Shown here: piece by piece, positions 7,126 to 27,568 of the stretch
Position numbering within the stretch: the stretch's first letter is position 1
How the letters are laid out: every line of letters starts with the position of its first letter
NCBI GenBank assembly: GCA_965656195.1
Contig: CBFHJL010000001.1
Coordinates: forward strand, 11,715-75,714
Length of the DNA stretch: 64,000 nt
Direction: 5' to 3'
From: Brumimicrobium sp.
Lineage (GTDB): Bacteria; Bacteroidota; Bacteroidia; Flavobacteriales_D; Crocinitomicaceae
Notes under the pieces: model-generated
What the model was told of the DNA's origin: nothing
The model's input: the letters and a program-made list of their open reading frames with translations, nothing else
Databases searched by the model: none
Translations under genes and position numbers: made by a program

Positions 7126-8442
7126 TTATTTTCTGCGTCTTTTCTTTTTGAAATTTTTGCGTTTTGCTTTGTCTCGCGGTCGAAAGTTCTCCTTCTTATT
7201 TTCTTTTTTCTTTTCCTGGAATTTTTCCCCTTCGCCAACAATGTGTGTTGGGTTAATAATAGAAGGTGCGTCATGAATATCTGGTTCAACTTCTTCTGGG
7301 ATCTTAGACTCACTTTTGGACACTTCTTCCGGGAAGTCGAGTGAGTTTATCTTAGCATCCATAAAAGATTGTATTCCAGTAAATAAACTTTCTTCTTCTA
7401 AAGTAACAAATGAAATAGATGTTCCGCGTTGTTCTGCACGACCTGTTCGTCCTATTCGGTGAATATATTGCTCTTTTTCGCTTGGTAAATCAAAGTTGAT
7501 TACGTGACTGACATTGTCGATATCTATACCTCTTGAAACAAGATCTGTAGCAACAATTCCTTTCAATTGATCAGACTTGAATTCTTGAACCATTCGCATT
7601 CTGAAGTTCTGAGACTTATTGCTATGAATCACCCCAAACTGTTCTGGGTAATCAGCTTCCAATCTATCGTGGAGAATATCTGCAAAACGTTTTGATTGCG
7701 CAAAAATGAAGCAACGCATTTCTGGGTTGGTATCAATGATGTGACGCAGTAAGTTGTACTTCGTATTGAAGTTCTCTGCACGATAGGCTGTTTGTTCAAT
7801 ATTTTCCAATGGAGTTCCTGAAGGTGCAGCAATAACATGTTCGCTTAATCCAAAGAAAGTATTGACGATTTCATCGACATCATCTGAAAGCGTTGCAGAA
7901 AATAGAAGATTCTGACGTTTTTCAGGCAATAGGTCAAAGATTCGCTGCAGTTGAGGGCGGAAACCGAGATTAAGCATTTCATCACACTCATCTACTACGA
8001 GCTTCTTGACCAGTTTTAAGCGTAAAATTCCAGTCATCGCTAAATCGTAGAATCTTCCCGGTGTTCCGACTAAAATATCGCAACCCGCATGAACAGCTTT
8101 CTTTTGCGTATTCATATTTGTTCCTCCGTAAACAGCTAATGTTTTAACGGAAAGATATTCGCTCAATTTATTGGATTCTTCTGCAACCTGGATAGCGAGT
8201 TCTCGAGTAGGAACGAGTATAACTACACGGGGCATTTTCTCTTCAGAGTATTTGAGATCTCTCAATATGGGGAGAAGATAGGCCAAGGTTTTTCCTGTAC
8301 CTGTTTGAGCTATACCTATAACGCTTTTTCCCGCTAAGACCTTTGGGATAGCTTTCTCTTGAATGGCTGTTGGCTCCGTGATATTCTGCTCATTCAGCGC
8401 AGTCATCAATTGTTTAGGAAGCTTTATATCTTCAAATCTCAT
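7126..8442 (-). CDS. DEAD/DExD-box RNA helicase with DECD motif II and Lys/Arg-rich tail
   Basis: Q-motif, AQTGTGKT, PTRELA, DECD, SAT, RGID, HRIGRTGR. Confidence 0.93.
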   Translation of the reverse strand: MRFEDIKLPKQLMTALNEQNITEPTAIQEKAIPKVLAGKSVIGIAQTGTGKTLAYLLPILRDLKYSEEKMPRVVILVPTRELAIQVAEESNKLSEYLSVKTLAVYGGTNMNTQKKAVHAGCDILVGTPGRFYDLAMTGILRLKLVKKLVVDECDEMLNLGFRPQLQRIFDLLPEKRQNLLFSATLSDDVDEIVNTFFGLSEHVIAAPSGTPLENIEQTAYRAENFNTKYNLLRHIIDTNPEMRCFIFAQSKRFADILHDRLEADYPEQFGVIHSNKSQNFRMRMVQEFKSDQLKGIVATDLVSRGIDIDNVSHVINFDLPSEKEQYIHRIGRTGRAEQRGTSISFVTLEEESLFTGIQSFMDAKINSLDFPEEVSKSESKIPEEVEPDIHDAPSIINPTHIVGEGEKFQEKKKENKKENFRPRDKAKRKNFKKKRRRK

Positions 8443-10001: not shown

Positions 10002-10607
10002 TTAATCTTCTTTTTTTACTTTTTCCCATGTTTCGAAAAGTTTCTCTTGCGTTGGTCTTCCTGGCTCAATCTCGCGAAGAGGTTCACATGGTTTTAATGT
10101 TGCGTAACATTCTCCCGGTAAAGCTTGATAAAGGGATGTGCCTTTTGTTTTCCAGGCAATCATATCATCGGAAACATCTTTGATCTTTTTCGCTGGATTC
10201 CCAACGATTAAGCTTCGTTTTGGGAACTCACTCTTTGCACTAACGAAGGATAGTGCGCCTACAATAGATTCTGCCCCAATAATACTATCATCCATAATCA
10301 CACTGTTCATTCCAATTAAAGAGTTCCTACCGATGGTGCCTCCGTGAATGATAGCCCCATGTCCAATATGAGCCGATTCTTCCAATGTTACTGTTGTTCC
10401 CGGAAACATGTGAATAGTACAATTCTCTTGTACGTTACAGCCATCTTTAATAATTATCTCACCCCAATCTCCTCTTATTGCAGCCCCTGGACCGACATAA
10501 ACATCTTTACCTATATGCACATTTCCAGTGACTGTTGCATTCGGATGTATAAAAGCCGTTTCGTTAATTACGGGCTTAAAGCCATTGAACTCAAAAATGT
10601 TTGACAT
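10002..10607 (-). CDS. PaaY/CaiE-like gamma-carbonic-anhydrase family hexapeptide-repeat protein
   Basis: GAAIRGDWG, NVQENCTIHMFPG, HIGHGAIIHG, LIGMNSVIMD. Confidence 0.85.
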   Translation of the reverse strand: MSNIFEFNGFKPVINETAFIHPNATVTGNVHIGKDVYVGPGAAIRGDWGEIIIKDGCNVQENCTIHMFPGTTVTLEESAHIGHGAIIHGGTIGRNSLIGMNSVIMDDSIIGAESIVGALSFVSAKSEFPKRSLIVGNPAKKIKDVSDDMIAWKTKGTSLYQALPGECYATLKPCEPLREIEPGRPTQEKLFETWEKVKKED

Positions 10608-10662
10608 TGTTTTTTATTTTTTTTGTACAACTTTTGTCCTCCTAAAACGTTAATAAGAAGCA

Positions 10663-11205
10663 ATGAGTTACTGCGAATTTACAAAAGATTTAGCTGAAGA
10701 TCATCCAGATAAAATTTATCATGATCAAGACTATGGTTTTCCGATTGATGATGATAATGAATTATTCGGGCGATTAATTCTAGAAATAAATCAGGCTGGA
10801 TTGAGTTGGTCAACAATTCTCAAGAAAGCAGATAATTTTAGAAGTGCGTATGATCAGTTTGATGTTGAAACAATTGCGAATTATGGTGATGATGATAAGC
10901 AGCGATTGCTATCTGATGCTGGGATAATTCGTAATAGACTTAAAGTGGATGCGGCAATTTATAACGCTGGAAGCGTTAAAGCTATTCAGTTGGAATATGG
11001 TTCTTTCAAGAATTGGTTGGATAAGCATAAATCATTATCTTTGGATAACTGGATTAAGTTGTTCAAAAATAACTTTAAGTTCACCGGTGGTGAAATAACT
11101 AGAGAATTTTTGATGAGCACGAGTTACTTGAAAGGAGCGCATGATGAAAATTGCTCAACATTTAAAAAAATAATAGAAAAACAACCTGTATGGGATCAAG
11201 ATTAA
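10663..11205 (+). CDS. tag: DNA-3-methyladenine glycosylase I
   Basis: YHDxDYG, LEINQAGLSWSTILKK, N-terminal Cys and C-terminal HxxxC Zn ligands. Confidence 0.92.
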   Translation: MSYCEFTKDLAEDHPDKIYHDQDYGFPIDDDNELFGRLILEINQAGLSWSTILKKADNFRSAYDQFDVETIANYGDDDKQRLLSDAGIIRNRLKVDAAIYNAGSVKAIQLEYGSFKNWLDKHKSLSLDNWIKLFKNNFKFTGGEITREFLMSTSYLKGAHDENCSTFKKIIEKQPVWDQD

Positions 11206-17872: not shown

Positions 17873-18943
17873 ATGAAGCATCTTTTATTTGCAGTACTTT
17901 CTATCGCTATTTTAGCTGGCTGTACAACAAAATTCAGTGTTAACGGGGAATATTCTGAAACTCCTATTGTTCACATGTTGTTAGATCCACATGACGAATT
18001 TCATTTCTTGAAACTCAACAAAACGTTTTTGGGAGATGGAAATGCTAATGATTTTGCTTTGGTAGCAGATTCTGCCTATTTTGATCAAGTTGACGCAACA
18101 ATCGAGGAATTGATAGATGGGACTACAGTTAGAAGTTGGACATTACAAGATACAATAATCGAAAATAAAGAGTCAGGATCATTCTATTACCCTGAACAAA
18201 AACTCTATTTCTTTCAAGCAGATGATCTGAATGAAGAAGCTACGTATAGGTTAAATATTGATATAGAAAATGGCAAGCATACCGTTCAGGGTGAAACTGA
18301 ATTGGTAAAAGGTATTAATATTACTTTTCCAAATGTAAATCAGCAATTGAATTTCGCTGAGGCTAATGTACCTCAAAATGGTTACAATACTCAGTCAATT
18401 GCTTTTTCAACGGGAATTGGTGGTGCTATTTATAAGGTTCAAGTTCGTTTTGATTATCGAGAAGTAAAGGCCTCTGGTAATGAGAATAAGTCTTTAACTT
18501 GGGATGTTGGAACTGTTCGAATCGCTGATTTAACAACTCCTACGCCTTCATTAGGTGCTAATGGAGAAGCATTTTATGAGTTTATAGCAAATCGAATTCA
18601 GCAAGACCCAACTGTTACGCGAAGAACGATTAGAGGTTTCGAACTAATTGTTACTGCAGGTTCCGAAGATCTTAATACTTATATGCTTACCAATGAACCG
18701 ACATCTTCGTTGGCGCAGAATCAGCCTACTTTCTCTAATGTAGATGGTGGTTTGGGTATTTTTTCGGCACGAACAACAGCTGCGCAGTATAAGCCATTTC
18801 AAAGCCCGGACAGTCCTAATATTCGTGGACTAAATGTTAATAGTACTAGAGAACTTTGCCAAGGACAATATACGGGTTCCTTGCTTTTTTGTAGCGATAA
18901 CACAAATGATATTGCGCAAAATTATCCTTTCGCTTGTAACTAA
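17873..18943 (+). CDS. DUF4249-like lipoprotein
   Basis: Lipobox LAGC; YPEQKLYFF, YRLNIDI, FSNVDGGLGIFSAR. Start set at ATG 17873. Confidence 0.7.
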   Translation: MKHLLFAVLSIAILAGCTTKFSVNGEYSETPIVHMLLDPHDEFHFLKLNKTFLGDGNANDFALVADSAYFDQVDATIEELIDGTTVRSWTLQDTIIENKESGSFYYPEQKLYFFQADDLNEEATYRLNIDIENGKHTVQGETELVKGINITFPNVNQQLNFAEANVPQNGYNTQSIAFSTGIGGAIYKVQVRFDYREVKASGNENKSLTWDVGTVRIADLTTPTPSLGANGEAFYEFIANRIQQDPTVTRRTIRGFELIVTAGSEDLNTYMLTNEPTSSLAQNQPTFSNVDGGLGIFSARTTAAQYKPFQSPDSPNIRGLNVNSTRELCQGQYTGSLLFCSDNTNDIAQNYPFACN

Positions 18944-19039
18944 TACTTTAAAGTTTTTTGAGCGCGATCACCCATTTAGAGCGCTTGGATTGTGGTGTTC
19001 ATCTATTGCTCCAGCAATAAATCCGAAAATAATTCGTAA

Positions 19040-19072
19040 TATAATGTAACGTGATATAAGTGTTGCGTTATA
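19040..19072 (+). other. 12-bp RNA hairpin with three G.U pairs upstream of the ECF sigma gene
   Basis: TATAATGTAACG (19040-19051) pairs with TGTTGCGTTATA (19061-19072); fully paired only on the + strand. Confidence 0.45.
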
Positions 19073-19132
19073 AATAAGAGACTATTGTCTGCAAGCAATG
19101 GTTTCGTTGAACCCCAAAAACCCAAGTTTACT

Positions 19133-19723
19133 ATGAGTCAGAGTCGAATAAACCCCGTTTATCATCATTCAGATAGGATGCTGAGTGACGAGCAAGAGCA
19201 AATCGCTCTTGCGAAAAGTGATCCTAGATATTTTGCTCCACTGTATGAGAAATACCACGAGCAGATTTTTAGATACATTGATCAGCGTATGGATGATCAA
19301 GACCTCGCGTACGATGTAACTTCACAAGTTTTTCTTAAGGCGATAAAAAATATTCACAAATTTGAATATAGAGGGGTTCCGCTAGGTTCATGGCTTTATA
19401 GAATAGCTAAGAGTGAATTAAATCAAGCCTTTAGAAATCGAAAAGCTAAACGAGCGATCAATATAGATAAAACGCATGTTGCTACTTTCATGGAAGTTTT
19501 TAGCGAGGAAGAAAATGATTTGAATCGTAAACGACTATTTAATGCTTTAGATCAGTTGAAGGATGTGGACTTGCAACTGATAGAATTACGCTACTTTGAA
19601 GATCGTCCATATCGTGAGATAGGGGAGATACTCGAAATCAAGGAGAATAATGCGAAAGTGAAAACTTTTAGAGCACTTGAAAAATTGAAACATCTATTTA
19701 CTAAAACCTACGGTAATGAGTAA
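19133..19723 (+). CDS. ECF RNA polymerase sigma factor
   Basis: FAPLYEKY, D..YDVTSQVFLKA, SWLYRIA, region 4 LRYFEDRPYREIGEIL..KENNAKVKTFRA; start set at ATG 19133. Confidence 0.93.
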   Translation: MSQSRINPVYHHSDRMLSDEQEQIALAKSDPRYFAPLYEKYHEQIFRYIDQRMDDQDLAYDVTSQVFLKAIKNIHKFEYRGVPLGSWLYRIAKSELNQAFRNRKAKRAINIDKTHVATFMEVFSEEENDLNRKRLFNALDQLKDVDLQLIELRYFEDRPYREIGEILEIKENNAKVKTFRALEKLKHLFTKTYGNE

Positions 19724-21398
19724 TCGTAAAATTAATTATAATCGTCCGGTACCATCTAGCGAAAAGGTAAAGGAACGTCAAAATTTTGATGACGTTCTGA
19801 ATCAAATCGCAACGGTACCTGCACCGTTTTTTAAGAGCATAGGTTTCTGGGGAGCTATTGGTTCCTCAGTAATCGCTTTTACTTTTCTAACCAACCAATA
19901 TTTTAATTCTGTAAAAGAGAAAAATGCCTATGAAGCAAACCCTACTTTAGCAATTCAGTCTAATGAATTACCTCAAGACACAAAGTGCATAAAACCAATC
20001 AATGATCGTGTAGATCATGAATTTGAAACTTTCGTAATTCAACCGAATAAGTCAAATACTATCTACGTAGAAGGAGGTGCTATAATATCCATTCCTGCAG
20101 ATGCATTTGTAACGGAAAGCAAAGAGGATATTATAATTAATGCCAGAGTATTTAGAGACAAATCAGAAGCCTATGTTGCTGGTGTTCCAATGGACTATGG
20201 TGATAGCGAGGCTTTTGAGTCTGCTGGAATGATAGAAATCAGAGGCAGTCAAAATGGAAAGAAGGTGGAGTTGAATGCTGATAAAGAGATTGAAGTCACT
20301 TTAGGCTTGCATAAGTCGCCTGAAGATTTTGATTTTTACGCCTTGGATGATCAAACAGGTGAATGGTCAGAATATGTTGCAGAAATGAAATCCATCGCTC
20401 AACAATTGCCAGAACAAAATGATTTGGTTGAAGCGTTAAAATCTGAATTGAATGAAGGTATAAAGCGTGTTGAGGCTGTAGAGAAGGAAATCTCAACGTT
20501 AACTACACCCAAGAAAGCAGATTATCATATCGCTGAGAACAAACAACAAGTGTTCGAACTGAAGTTTAATAAACACGAATTTCCGGAGCTAAGATCATTT
20601 GAACAGCTTCAGTTTGAGGCTAAGTGTAGCGCTCTTAAATATAGTGAGATTCTTGTTAAAACATGGACAGATGTTGATCTTCAGCAAACGAATAGAGGAG
20701 AGTATCAAGCTGAATTTTCAAATCGAAGTGGTGCGAAAATAGCTGTTGATGTTGTGCCGGTTGTAAGTGGTAAACAAGCTGATATAGCATTCAAAAGATA
20801 TTCATCTGAAAAGAAACGTATAGAGAATGAAAGACGCAAGAAACAAGAGGTGTTAGAAGGTCTATACGCTGAAAATAATGAAAGACAAGAAAGAATTAGC
20901 AGTCTCATTAGCCTGGATGAACGCAGAAATCAGGAGTTTTTGGATCGTCGTGCACAAGCTGATAATAAAGAGTTTGTTGAGAAAGTTGCAATGTTGAACG
21001 AGTTCTACAATGCTTCAGCTACATTCAGAACAAACAGATGGGGTGTTTTTAACTGTGATAAACCTGTTAAGTATCCTAGCGCTCCTTTGTCACCATATAC
21101 TTTTGCTTCAAACAATAATCCTGTGAAAGCTCGAGAAATTCATGTTTTTGATCTCGATAAAGATGTGCAATATAGGTATGGAACTCATAATCATCCATTG
21201 GCTTCAGCTGCTATTAATAATGGTGAAACTGTAATAATTGTTCAAGATCGAAATGGTAACATGGGGTATGCAAGAGTTCACTCAAGAAAAGAGATTCAGA
21301 ATCGAGTAATTAAGCTCATTCCTATAAATGCAAAGGAGGCAGATATGGAGTTCTTCAAATCATTATTGGATGAAGATAAGGAAAGAGTTAGGGCTTAG
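19716..21398 (+). CDS. Single-pass membrane protein, candidate anti-sigma factor
   Basis: 8-nt overlap with the sigma gene; about 38-aa cytoplasmic N-terminus, one hydrophobic helix, beta domain (FESAGMIEI), coiled coil, WGVFNCD motif. Confidence 0.65.
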   Translation: MSNRKINYNRPVPSSEKVKERQNFDDVLNQIATVPAPFFKSIGFWGAIGSSVIAFTFLTNQYFNSVKEKNAYEANPTLAIQSNELPQDTKCIKPINDRVDHEFETFVIQPNKSNTIYVEGGAIISIPADAFVTESKEDIIINARVFRDKSEAYVAGVPMDYGDSEAFESAGMIEIRGSQNGKKVELNADKEIEVTLGLHKSPEDFDFYALDDQTGEWSEYVAEMKSIAQQLPEQNDLVEALKSELNEGIKRVEAVEKEISTLTTPKKADYHIAENKQQVFELKFNKHEFPELRSFEQLQFEAKCSALKYSEILVKTWTDVDLQQTNRGEYQAEFSNRSGAKIAVDVVPVVSGKQADIAFKRYSSEKKRIENERRKKQEVLEGLYAENNERQERISSLISLDERRNQEFLDRRAQADNKEFVEKVAMLNEFYNASATFRTNRWGVFNCDKPVKYPSAPLSPYTFASNNNPVKAREIHVFDLDKDVQYRYGTHNHPLASAAINNGETVIIVQDRNGNMGYARVHSRKEIQNRVIKLIPINAKEADMEFFKSLLDEDKERVRA

Positions 21399-21786
21399 CT
21401 TTGTATTTATTTCGCTCTTTTGGATGTGTATAGGTCAAGTAGATCAAGTACACATTCAGAAAGAGTGGGGTGAAATGGATTTCGCTCCTAGAATAGCTGG
21501 TTACGTTGACGGTGATATTCCAATCAATAAAATTTGTGATGCAAGGGGGATATACATTGATAGAGGACTTAAGGTCATATCTTTTAAATTAGAATTGCAA
21601 TCGGGTAGGTACGACACTATTATTCGAATTAACGGAAATCAATTACCTGATAGCATCTGTGCTTTTATTCAATCTCAAGGTCCTGGAATGCATTATTACT
21701 TTACTAGAATTTGTGCTATGGATAGAGATGGATCTTTGAAACACCTTAGTCCCCTTCGTCTCTTTACTGTTCGAGAAGATGATTGA
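21370..21786 (+). CDS. Secreted protein resembling the GldM/PorM C-terminal (D4) domain
   Basis: Start set at ATG 21370 (signal peptide ending CIG|Q); GI.I...KVISF...INGNQL...I....G..YYF..I.A...DG..K.L.P pattern. Confidence 0.6.
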   Translation: MKIRKELGLSFVFISLFWMCIGQVDQVHIQKEWGEMDFAPRIAGYVDGDIPINKICDARGIYIDRGLKVISFKLELQSGRYDTIIRINGNQLPDSICAFIQSQGPGMHYYFTRICAMDRDGSLKHLSPLRLFTVREDD

Positions 21787-21874
21787 TGATTCATTTGTAA
21801 ATACTACCAACTAGAATTACAGTAATTCCCTTTAATTGCTTAGTTTTGTTGTCTTAAACTCAATCAATTATTTC

Positions 21875-22687
21875 ATGAAAATTTCTGTTTTTCTATCATT
21901 CGTTTTATTTGCATCAGCACTATCAGGACAAGTTACTTTATTACAAGAAAATTTTGACACACCTGGATTACCTGCCGGATGGGAGCGAATTGACAATGAT
22001 GGAAATACACCAGCAAATGATGTAAGCGAATATACCGACGCATGGATTTATAAAGAAGACCCGTTGAACGCAGGAAATGGAACTTTTTCCAGTACTTCAT
22101 TTTTTGATCCTATCGATCGCGCAGATCGTTGGTTGATCTCTCCTTCGATTACTTTGGGAGCCTCCGGAAACTTCATTTCTTGGAAAGGATTATCAAGTGA
22201 TGCTTCTTTTCCCGATTCATATAAGGTTGTTATTTCAACAACTACGAGTGATATAGTTGATTTTACAGATACTTTAGTGCTCATTGGTGCTGAATCTCCG
22301 GATTGGACCGAATACACCCTAGATCTTGAAGAATATGCGAGTGAAACAGTTTTTATAGCGTTTGTCAATACCACTTTTGATGGATTTAAATTATACCTTG
22401 ACAGTATTCACGTTAGAGAGCAAGATCCATTGAATGTTACAGAATTAGATAATGTTACAATAAGTTTGTATCCCAACCCTGCGACAAATGCTGTAAAAGT
22501 TCAAGCGAATCAAACGGTGACAGCATTATCTTTATTTTCAGCTCTTGGTCAGCGCGTCCATTTAATTGAAAACAACGCTACGAATTTGATAGAACTAGAA
22601 TTGTCTAACTTGCCTCAAGGAATATACTATGTGCATCTTAAACTAATCTCTGGAGAGATCATTAGGAAGAAGCTCATCAAAAGATAG
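21875..22687 (+). CDS. T9SS cargo with cleaved-adhesin (choice-of-anchor J) domain
   Basis: GWERIDNDG, DRWLISPSI, Y.V.IST, YLDSIHV; C-terminal LYPNPA...LPQGIYYV...KKLIK. Confidence 0.85.
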   Translation: MKISVFLSFVLFASALSGQVTLLQENFDTPGLPAGWERIDNDGNTPANDVSEYTDAWIYKEDPLNAGNGTFSSTSFFDPIDRADRWLISPSITLGASGNFISWKGLSSDASFPDSYKVVISTTTSDIVDFTDTLVLIGAESPDWTEYTLDLEEYASETVFIAFVNTTFDGFKLYLDSIHVREQDPLNVTELDNVTISLYPNPATNAVKVQANQTVTALSLFSALGQRVHLIENNATNLIELELSNLPQGIYYVHLKLISGEIIRKKLIKR

Positions 22688-22722
22688 CAGGGTTTTAGCA
22701 AAGAAGTAAATCGTATTAATCC

Positions 22723-23394
22723 CTACTGATCCTTGCCTTCTTTCTTTAATTGCATTAGAACAGAGAACGCAGCATCAATATCATCCGAGTGCACAACTAC
22801 GGTAAACTCATTCGATGTAGAAACCACTTCAACAATATTTATGCCTTCCCAAGCTAGGTGTTTAAGGATAAAATAATAGATTCCTGATATTTCTGTATTA
22901 ACTGTAGGAAGCTTGATTGTTATTGAAGCTAGATCTGCTGTATGCGATTTTAATTTTTCATCCTTAAAGACAACCTCTAGTTTTTCTTTAACTGATAAAC
23001 TTGTAATGATGGTTGACTCTCCCACACCATGACAGAATGTGTAAAACGGATCTTGTTCATCGTTGAGCAACTTCATCATTTCTGCTTGACGCAAAGTAAG
23101 GGTAGTGGAATTCTCGAAAGTGAAGTCTTCTAAATCACTTCGCACGAGGAAGTCACCTAATGTTCCCATAAAATTCTTAATCTTCAGGTTAATTCTATGG
23201 TAATACCCAGGAGACATTCTTTTAATAGACATAATGACCGCACCTTCTTTCACGGGTTTCTTAAGATGATCTTCAATCTCAGGTTTGATTTTACGTGCTA
23301 GTGCTGAAACGTTAATCAAGTTTTCTGTTAGAGCTTCTCTTAAAAAAGGGGAGCGATTAATGATTTCTTCTGTAACCTTTCCGATAGATGACAT
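22723..23394 (-). CDS. HTH plus ACT-domain protein (often annotated aspartate-kinase-like)
   Basis: N-terminal LINVSALARKIKPEI helix-turn-helix-like segment; C-terminal EGINIVEVVSTSNEFTVVV ACT; no kinase domain. Confidence 0.7.
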   Translation of the reverse strand: MSSIGKVTEEIINRSPFLREALTENLINVSALARKIKPEIEDHLKKPVKEGAVIMSIKRMSPGYYHRINLKIKNFMGTLGDFLVRSDLEDFTFENSTTLTLRQAEMMKLLNDEQDPFYTFCHGVGESTIITSLSVKEKLEVVFKDEKLKSHTADLASITIKLPTVNTEISGIYYFILKHLAWEGINIVEVVSTSNEFTVVVHSDDIDAAFSVLMQLKKEGKDQ

Positions 23395-26821: not shown

Positions 26822-27454
26822 TTAGTTCTCTTGCAACATTTCCATGAATTCATCGAGCGTAATAATTTCATGATCCGATGGAATACCAAAATAATCCCGC
26901 GGAATAGGTTTCTGCTCAAACTCTATTAACTCGTACGTTATCCAAATACCATTTGAATGGATGCTGTATTTTACGGGTAAACCAGGTATTCCTTCTAATG
27001 CGTTTGAATACTTAGAAGAAACTTCAGGAAGATAGTTCACCATAAAAGTGGTGTCTTGATCATTATCAGTTATCATAACTCTTCGGGCCTCCTGTCCTGC
27101 AATAATATCAGTACCCATCTTATTTTTATAGGTGTACTTGTCATTGTTTTTGATGCTATCAGTTATCGTTTGAATGGCAACGCTCTTAACTCCTAGATCC
27201 ATTAGGATATAAGCTCTATTCTTGGGAATATGTTTGATGTAAAGTTGCTTTCCAATAGGTGTGTAACTATCAATGCGCAACATTGAATCCATCATATAAA
27301 TAATTTGATAATTAGAACTATCTTGAGCAGAAGGGTTGCTGATTGAAGAGGTTATCTTGTAAATCATTTTACCTTGAAAATCTTCATTATGTTCTTTAGG
27401 TAATCCACAAGAAAATATTGAAATTGAGATAATTATAAATGTAAATAGACGCAT
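26822..27454 (-). CDS. Lipoprotein, GLPGLI/DUF4412-like
   Basis: Lipobox IFSC; I.G..A..V, GIPGLPVKY, F.IP.D motifs. Confidence 0.55.
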   Translation of the reverse strand: MRLFTFIIISISIFSCGLPKEHNEDFQGKMIYKITSSISNPSAQDSSNYQIIYMMDSMLRIDSYTPIGKQLYIKHIPKNRAYILMDLGVKSVAIQTITDSIKNNDKYTYKNKMGTDIIAGQEARRVMITDNDQDTTFMVNYLPEVSSKYSNALEGIPGLPVKYSIHSNGIWITYELIEFEQKPIPRDYFGIPSDHEIITLDEFMEMLQEN

Positions 27455-27568
27455 TGATTTATTTTTTGGTAATAACGTTTAATTCAATAATCGGTTACTA
27501 AATTAATATTTTAGTTTACCCAACTATGAATCGATTATTGAAAACAAAGTTCATGCTATTGATTTTTG

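Follow-up and report, generated by a model that had tools for sequence, protein, structure and literature searches.

The 64,000-nucleotide stretch of Brumimicrobium sp. DNA analysed here in its entirety (the window) harbours a gene cluster in which an extracytoplasmic function (ECF) sigma factor gene (19133..19723, + strand) is followed by the gene of an anti-sigma-like membrane protein of 560 amino acids (aa; 19716..21398, +), the gene of a small secreted protein of 138 aa (138 codons; 21370..21786, +) and a type IX secretion system (T9SS) type-A cargo gene (21875..22687, +). The small protein consists of one domain of ~100 aa (about residues 36-138), which resembles D4, the distal domain of the motor protein GldM/PorM. 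On the basis of this resemblance, the gene order and the relatives in which the same domain is joined to the membrane protein's N-terminus, the feature is regarded as real and conserved, an ECF sigma/anti-sigma module whose putative sensor head derives from the T9SS motor.

The small secreted gene and its conservation

Translation of 21370-21786 (+) yields MKIRKELGLSFVFISLFWMCIGQVDQ..., and the peptide quoted from this frame in the sequence-only reading (an earlier inspection of the window by a model, made without database searches) is present in the 138-aa protein. An alternative in-frame ATG is available at 21328; the start equivalent to 21370 is found in 11/11 close homologues. The N-terminus (MKIRKELGLSFVFISLFWMCIG, followed by Q) carries a signal peptide at residues 1-22, in which a basic n-region precedes a hydrophobic core (2.3 on the Kyte-Doolittle scale across 12 residues), and Q23 is the predicted +1 residue. 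Glutamine is the typical first residue of Bacteroidota signal peptidase I substrates, and a small residue followed by Q occupies the predicted cleavage place in 60/65 stand-alone relatives. The 138-aa protein is predicted to be Sec-exported, single-domain and periplasmic. A lipoprotein reading was ruled out, as no lipobox is present in the N-terminus and C20 is not conserved.

The frame is not a chance open reading frame (ORF), because 11 close cluster representatives of the protein are known and a phmmer search, run exhaustively against 1.8 billion representative proteins, retrieved 112 representatives at E<=1e-3. P0078 (1123 aa, 5 matching stretches) proved to be a spurious match made of Ig-like and other repeats, and was left out of the family. 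The gene overlaps the upstream 560-aa gene at 21370-21398 (29 nucleotides, nt), and the overlap measures 23-29 nt in relatives. That the 560-aa and 138-aa frames might be joined by a programmed frameshift was ruled out by the small ORF's own conserved start, signal peptide and +1 Q in the free-form (stand-alone) relatives. The signal peptide, the 29-nt overlap with the anti-sigma candidate and the T9SS adhesin as the next gene had all been described in the sequence-only reading, and each of them is borne out by the ORF coordinates and domain matches. The closest genome match to the locus is a Brumimicrobium sp. metagenome-assembled genome (92% identity), and the locus is present in marine plankton metagenomes.

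Resemblance to the distal domain of GldM and PorM

The similarity to GldM/PorM D4 had been proposed by eye, together with a check against GldM D4 by profile and structure; the check has been run, and it returned a significant structural match as well as a profile match. An AlphaFold2 model of the 138-aa protein, built on the homologue alignment, has a predicted local distance difference test score (pLDDT) of 85-91 over residues 40-138, and its modelled secondary structure is a single beta-sandwich with one helix. In a Foldseek comparison with the PDB, ranks 1-6 were C-terminal chains of PorM (6EY6, 7CMG and 6EY5, covering D3-D4 or D2-D4), matched over 95-98 columns with E-values of 5.2e-6 to 5.5e-5, a probability of 1.0 and a root-mean-square deviation of 2.0-2.4 Å. 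GldM (6EY4) was placed at rank 9, and the next unrelated matches were poor Ig/FN3 ones (template modelling score <=0.28). By these first six ranks, the modelled protein has the three-dimensional fold of the D4 domain described by Pfam PF12080 (GldM_4th).

Detection of the same relationship by profile required a suitable alignment. A close-homologue profile (A1) gave no PDB match, and a full-length profile of 59 sequences gave weak PorM matches only (E 0.3), so that a trimmed and more diverse domain profile was needed. The top five matches of this domain-only profile (A5; 40 diverse members) among 177,635 PDB sequences were to PorM (E 0.0022-0.0035) and GldM (E 0.1), and the alignments fall on the last ~70 residues of both proteins, which constitute D4. 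Among individual relatives, P0087 scores 27.2 bits against GldM_4th, above the gathering cut-off of 24.6 bits, and P0063 scores 21.4 bits. Further, GldM_4th matches 9/59 stand-alone relatives (best E 1.4e-7) and 11/50 fused relatives, and is the sole recurrent Pfam family among them, every other family being limited to <=2 members. The likeness first seen by eye is borne out by the six leading Foldseek matches to PorM, the PDB domain profile and the Pfam score of P0087; judged from the model and the profile, the fold and sequence of the 138-aa protein are derived from the distal D4 domain of GldM/PorM.

The 138-aa protein itself is outside the GldM protein family. Its likeness to D4 of PorM and GldM (6EY5, 6EY6, 7CMG, 6EY4; PF12080) covers the fold, profile homology across the whole domain and the periplasmic site, whereas it has its own signal peptide, a cysteine pair and a PxIAG..G.IP motif, and its gene accompanies an ECF sigma gene in every readable context. 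As compared with GldM/PorM (TIGR03517; ~515 aa versus 138 aa), it shows no transmembrane helix, no D1-D3 arm and no NCBIfam match. Nor does it, or any counterpart in the related loci, lie in a gldK-gldL-gldM-gldN (porKLMN) operon; its neighbours in the window are the ECF sigma factor, the 560-aa membrane protein and the T9SS cargo. The PxIAG..G.IP motif, which is near-invariant and specific to the family, precedes the domain core, and P40, G48 and I114 are near-invariant as well. Across 121 relatives, C56 and C97 occur together in 89 and are jointly missing from 29, and only 3 have just one of them; since the two cysteines are kept or lost as a pair, a C56-C97 disulfide is probable.

Coupling of the domain to the sigma module

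Co-occurrence of the D4-like gene with the ECF pair in other genomes had been named in the sequence-only reading as a further check, and it held in every context with readable upstream DNA. Genomic context was read for 13 different relatives. An orthologous ECF sigma factor together with a conserved anti-sigma-like N-terminal and transmembrane module was found in 12/12 relative contexts with readable upstream DNA as well as in the window. Over 121 representative clusters, the domain is found as 65 free, 50 fused and 5 third-form proteins and 1 fragment. In the free form, the order sigma, ~560-aa protein, D4-like protein is present in loci L001-L010 and L012-L014 wherever upstream DNA is available, and it holds at 30% identity (L009) and in loci with differing flanking genes.

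The fused form, which makes up about half of the family, comprises proteins of 240-280 aa with the D4-like domain at the C-terminus. Their N-terminus (MxKxKxxLDRxPLSSxYIxSKQDFxxV...P.WKS.WFYG, then a transmembrane helix) is homologous to the N-terminus of the 560-aa protein (hhalign probability 99.8%, E 1.8e-27, residues 1-78). An E/K/S/T/P-rich linker, 74-122 residues long (median 98), separates transmembrane helix and domain, and such a tether of ~100 residues is long enough for the fused head to reach the outer-membrane side. Fused genes lie directly after an orthologous sigma gene (~60% identity) in L011, L015/16 and L018/19, and the fused locus L011 and the free locus L005 have upstream genes in common. 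A third form, consisting of a signal peptide, the D4-like domain and an extra domain of ~125 aa, follows sigma and a homologue of the 560-aa protein in L020 (hhalign E 2.5e-50) and L022 (hmmsearch E 2.2e-73). In a maximum-likelihood tree of the domain, at least 4 switches between the free and fused forms are forced by well-supported branches; this repeated fusion and fission argues that the D4-like domain and the protein bearing the N-terminal module (N-module) work together physically.

The 560-aa protein is laid out as a cytoplasmic N-module of ~45 aa, one transmembrane helix (about residues 41-67) and a periplasmic region of ~490 aa. It is a single-pass membrane protein directly downstream of sigma, as seen from its hydrophobic helix and the 8-nt overlap of its gene with the sigma stop, and this arrangement is kept in all loci. 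Its AlphaFold2 model (overall pLDDT 79) comprises, in order, a low-confidence cytoplasmic segment, the transmembrane helix, a beta-sandwich (about residues 100-226), a helix with small beta units, a coiled coil of ~60 residues (352-414) and a C-terminal beta domain. The beta-sandwich carries a near-invariant AFESAGMIEIRG motif. Comparison of the model with the PDB by Foldseek gave nothing at E<=1e-3, the best match being a weak one to the ZU5-like UNC5b (E 0.04), and the protein has no Pfam or NCBIfam family. Among its 73 cluster representatives, those with a source name are called hypothetical protein. A D4-like domain hidden within the 560-aa protein was ruled out (hhalign probability 0.2%; no PorM, PorN or PorK fold match). 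A search with the N-module alone retrieved near relatives only, and the module is, on sequence grounds, a new family.

The product of the sigma gene is matched by Sigma70_r2 (E 1.4e-11), Sigma70_r4_2 (E 1.5e-10) and TIGR02937 (82.3 bits against a cut-off of 42.9), and contains the sigma-2 and sigma-4 regions only, as is the case for ECF sigma factors. It is 60-100% identical across the related loci found by tblastn. Alignment of the loci places its start at the ATG in the conserved ACTATGAGT, and a TTG at 19085 falls in the leader. Upstream of the gene lies an ECF-type promoter-like motif, TGTAACG-N13-GCGTTAT (19045..19071, +), which is the one match to TGTAAC-N14-18-GTTAT in the window. TGTAAC-N15/16-(CG)TTAT precedes sigma in 8/8 loci, with TGTAAC and TTAT invariant even in the distant variants L020 and L022, and the motif is a probable autoregulated promoter. 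It is followed by a conserved hairpin at the 5' end predicted for the sigma mRNA (19079..19104, +), for which RNAalifold on the 8 loci gave 10 pairs, 7 of them with compensatory changes. The hairpin loop CTGCAA is invariant and a conserved AACCCCAAAAACC stretch then follows. No Rfam match was found in 18900-22000, hairpin included; an element of the leader RNA and an operator are both conceivable roles for it. No terminator was predicted in 18800-22800.

The looser pattern GTAAC-N14-19-CGTT occurs 6 times in the window as against 1.2 expected. One of these ECF-type promoter-like motifs, GTAAC-N15-CGTT (27474..27498, -), lies ~20 nt upstream of the start of a gene for a DUF4412 lipoprotein of 210 aa (26822..27454, -; DUF4412 E 2.9e-5, 24.4 bits against a cut-off of 21.6). 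This motif is kept in position and orientation in the window, L001, L004, L005, L013 and L014, and this sigma factor probably has the DUF4412 gene as a further target. A conserved ATATTAA precedes the motif. A GTAAC-N-CGTT match is also present at 10646-10671 (-), 39 nt upstream of a 201-aa gene (10002-10607, -).

Downstream of the D4-like gene, the T9SS cargo gene encodes a choice-of-anchor J/cleaved-adhesin protein with a C-terminal sorting domain (Por_Secre_tail E 1.8e-12, TIGR04183 2.7e-11, choice-of-anchor J 1.5e-20, Cleaved_Adhesin 2.8e-10), and its probable start is the ATG at 21875. The element TAnnTTTG is the housekeeping -7 promoter element of Bacteroidota. A match to it, TAGTTTTG (21841..21848, +), lies 27 nt before the cargo ATG and is conserved as TTAG(T/C)TTTG in the window, L012, L001 and L004; because of this -7 box, the listed TTG start at 21836 is unlikely. 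Motif scans of the window revealed no sigma-type promoter motif ahead of the cargo gene. In L011 (6913-7848) and L015 (1808-2647), both fused, and in L009 (1299-2246; distant split), the D4-like gene is followed by a DUF6089/outer-membrane protein beta-barrel gene ending in GGRYKF, which occupies the position that the cargo gene has in the window.

One variant operon carries an additional gene. In L022, the gene of a mini GldJ/GldK-like lipoprotein of 291 aa (7147-8022, +) is situated between those of the 560-aa protein's homologue and the D4-like protein, and it shares 22 nt with the D4-like gene; such a gene is absent from the window's own operon. The protein has an N-terminal lipobox and passes the Pfam FGE-sulfatase threshold, and its best NCBIfam matches (GldJ E 4.6e-22, GldJ_short 2.7e-17, GldK/PorK 4.9e-17) are far below the equivalog cut-offs. 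It is like GldK and GldJ of the gliding track in its lipobox and FGE-sulfatase fold, and differs from them in length (291 aa versus about 460-560 aa). In L017, a partial FGE-sulfatase gene (1-396, +; E 7.9e-10) lies upstream of the D4-like gene. The tip of GldM engages a ring or track made up of GldK, GldJ and GldN (PMC12635249, PMC12421860), and the placement of the L022 gene beside a GldM-D4-like gene echoes the GldK/N-GldM contact. This raises the idea that D4-like heads may dock on FGE-fold lipoproteins.

A putative three-part sigma switch

On balance, the 138-aa protein is likely to be the subunit that binds the ligand, in the periplasm, within an ECF sigma switch of three parts. The cytoplasmic N-module of ~45 aa would retain sigma at the membrane, while the D4-like domain (free here, tethered in relatives) would bind the periplasmic part of the 560-aa protein and recognise a ligand, itself a protein, close to the outer membrane. 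When this ligand changes, the anti-sigma would be inactivated and sigma released; sigma would then direct transcription of the operon that encodes it, from TGTAAC-N15/16-CGTTAT, and probably of the DUF4412 gene too. A sensor, a decoy and a clutch had all been suggested earlier for the free D4 copy. Of these, the fusion of the domain to the N-module and transmembrane helix in 50/121 clusters speaks strongly for a sensor connected with the ECF switch, while the decoy and clutch find no specific support.

Several observations weigh against this switch model. The window protein itself reaches only 13.6 bits (E 0.11) against PF12080, below the gathering cut-off of 24.6 bits, and the D4-like family varies in the loop that corresponds to the part of PorM in contact with PorN (around S460). 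No curated anti-sigma domain (zf-HC2, RskA or other) was found by Pfam and NCBIfam searches in the 560-aa protein or in the fused homologues, the N-module is modelled with low confidence (pLDDT 40-55), and its binding to sigma is something that we infer from gene order and conservation only. The downstream cargo gene is conserved in the Brumimicrobium/Fluviicola-like clade only and absent from other architectures, and it seems, from its -7 box, to have its own housekeeping-type promoter; owing to this box and to its replacement by a DUF6089 gene elsewhere, the cargo gene is weak evidence for a T9SS link. Finally, the sequencing runs containing the locus are DNA metagenomes only, with no RNA runs among them.

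The D4-like protein might alternatively be an output of sigma with no signalling role, i.e., a periplasmic adaptor or chaperone that passes the cargo or another protein to the secretion machine. Such a role would suit a gene that forms one transcription unit with sigma (no terminator being predicted in 18800-22800) and that, in one clade, precedes a T9SS cargo gene, and T9SS C-terminal domains have been reported to bind PorM D4 (bioRxiv 10.1101/483123). Yet neither the fused nor the other split architectures include the cargo gene, which has its own -7 box, and in 50/121 clusters the domain and the N-module/transmembrane anchor are parts of one polypeptide, unlike a diffusible adaptor; the proposal is considered improbable.

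The motor decoy or clutch, in which free D4 would compete with GldM for the GldN/GldK ring and brake or uncouple secretion and gliding when sigma is active, draws on the homology of the fold to the PorM domain that docks on PorN (PMC5790014, PMC12421860) and on the apparent autoregulation of the operon, by which the protein would be induced with sigma. The docking surface, however, shows no sign of retention (the loop equivalent to the PorM contact is variable), and the probable disulfide pair and the PxIAG..G.IP motif separate the family from GldM/PorM D4. Tethering of the fused homologues to the inner membrane within the anti-sigma protein also fits sensing better, and a decoy or clutch is judged very unlikely. 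The view that the gene is functionless evolutionary debris left by a broken fused anti-sigma gene, which could be drawn from the interconversion of fused and split forms on the tree and from the overlap with the upstream neighbour, is scarcely credible, as the free form is kept in 65 clusters down to ~25% identity with an intact signal peptide, +1 Q, P40/G48/I114 and a co-varying cysteine pair, the 23-29 nt overlap is conserved as expected for translational coupling, and no frameshifts, stops or relaxed selection were seen among the free-form genes in the loci read.

For the ligand-binding subunit of a sigma switch, the nature of the ligand is the next consideration. PorM D4 alone binds PorN (PMC5790014, PMC12421860), and T9SS C-terminal domains bind PorM D2-D3 and D4 (bioRxiv 10.1101/483123). 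Because of these two interactions and of the mini GldJ/GldK-like lipoprotein in variant operons, a track or ring protein of the GldK/GldJ/GldN type, or unsecreted T9SS cargo, is tentatively put forward as the most likely choice, and an unrelated envelope ligand is also possible. A link to T9SS/gliding status is plausible in view of the fold homology, the GldJ/K-like lipoprotein in some operons and the adjacency of the cargo gene. The more specific proposal that the D4-like head docks on the GldK/GldN/GldJ ring or track in the manner of GldM D4, so that the switch would report the state of the T9SS/gliding machine, be it assembled, occupied or jammed, is doubtful. If true, it would amount to a checkpoint on machine status made out of a copied part of the machine itself, and variant operons would bring a mini GldJ/K-like lipoprotein of their own for docking.

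ECF systems of three components, in which the periplasmic partner is a separate protein, are known from CnrH/CnrY/CnrX of Cupriavidus and sigmaE/RseA/RseB of Escherichia coli. The present module is like CnrYXH and RseA/RseB in combining sigma, a single-pass anti-sigma with a short cytoplasmic segment (of CnrY-like length) and an exported periplasmic protein, although the partner's control of the anti-sigma is here inferred. It differs from them in that the D4-like protein is related neither in sequence nor in fold to CnrX or RseB, the anti-sigma has a periplasmic region of ~490 aa without a fold match, and the partner is fused to the anti-sigma in relatives. To our knowledge, PorXY-SigP of Porphyromonas gingivalis is the only studied link between the T9SS and an ECF sigma factor. 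In this PorXY-SigP-PorA system, an ECF sigma pathway is tied to the T9SS and a protein with a T9SS C-terminal domain takes part (PMC7712824). The two resemble each other as Bacteroidota ECF sigma pathways, with the T9SS tie of the present module being hypothetical, and PorXY-SigP-PorA differs in having the two-component PorXY in place of a membrane anti-sigma and in having no GldM-derived domain. A full-text literature search found no paper joining GldM with anti-sigma and ECF.

How Bacteroidota monitor their T9SS/gliding apparatus and envelope is poorly understood. The module described here is an uncharacterised signalling module distributed across uncultured Bacteroidota (Brumimicrobium/Fluviicola-like organisms and unassigned metagenome contigs), with an anti-sigma part that has no curated family. 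Its putative sensor head is a copy of the tip of the motor arm, to which some versions add a copy of a track lipoprotein, and the GldM D4 fold has gained a second life outside the motor. The small secreted domain, the defined promoter motif and the natural fused and split versions together provide a testable handle on T9SS-status sensing, and the module points to an undescribed way of sensing the cell envelope in these bacteria.

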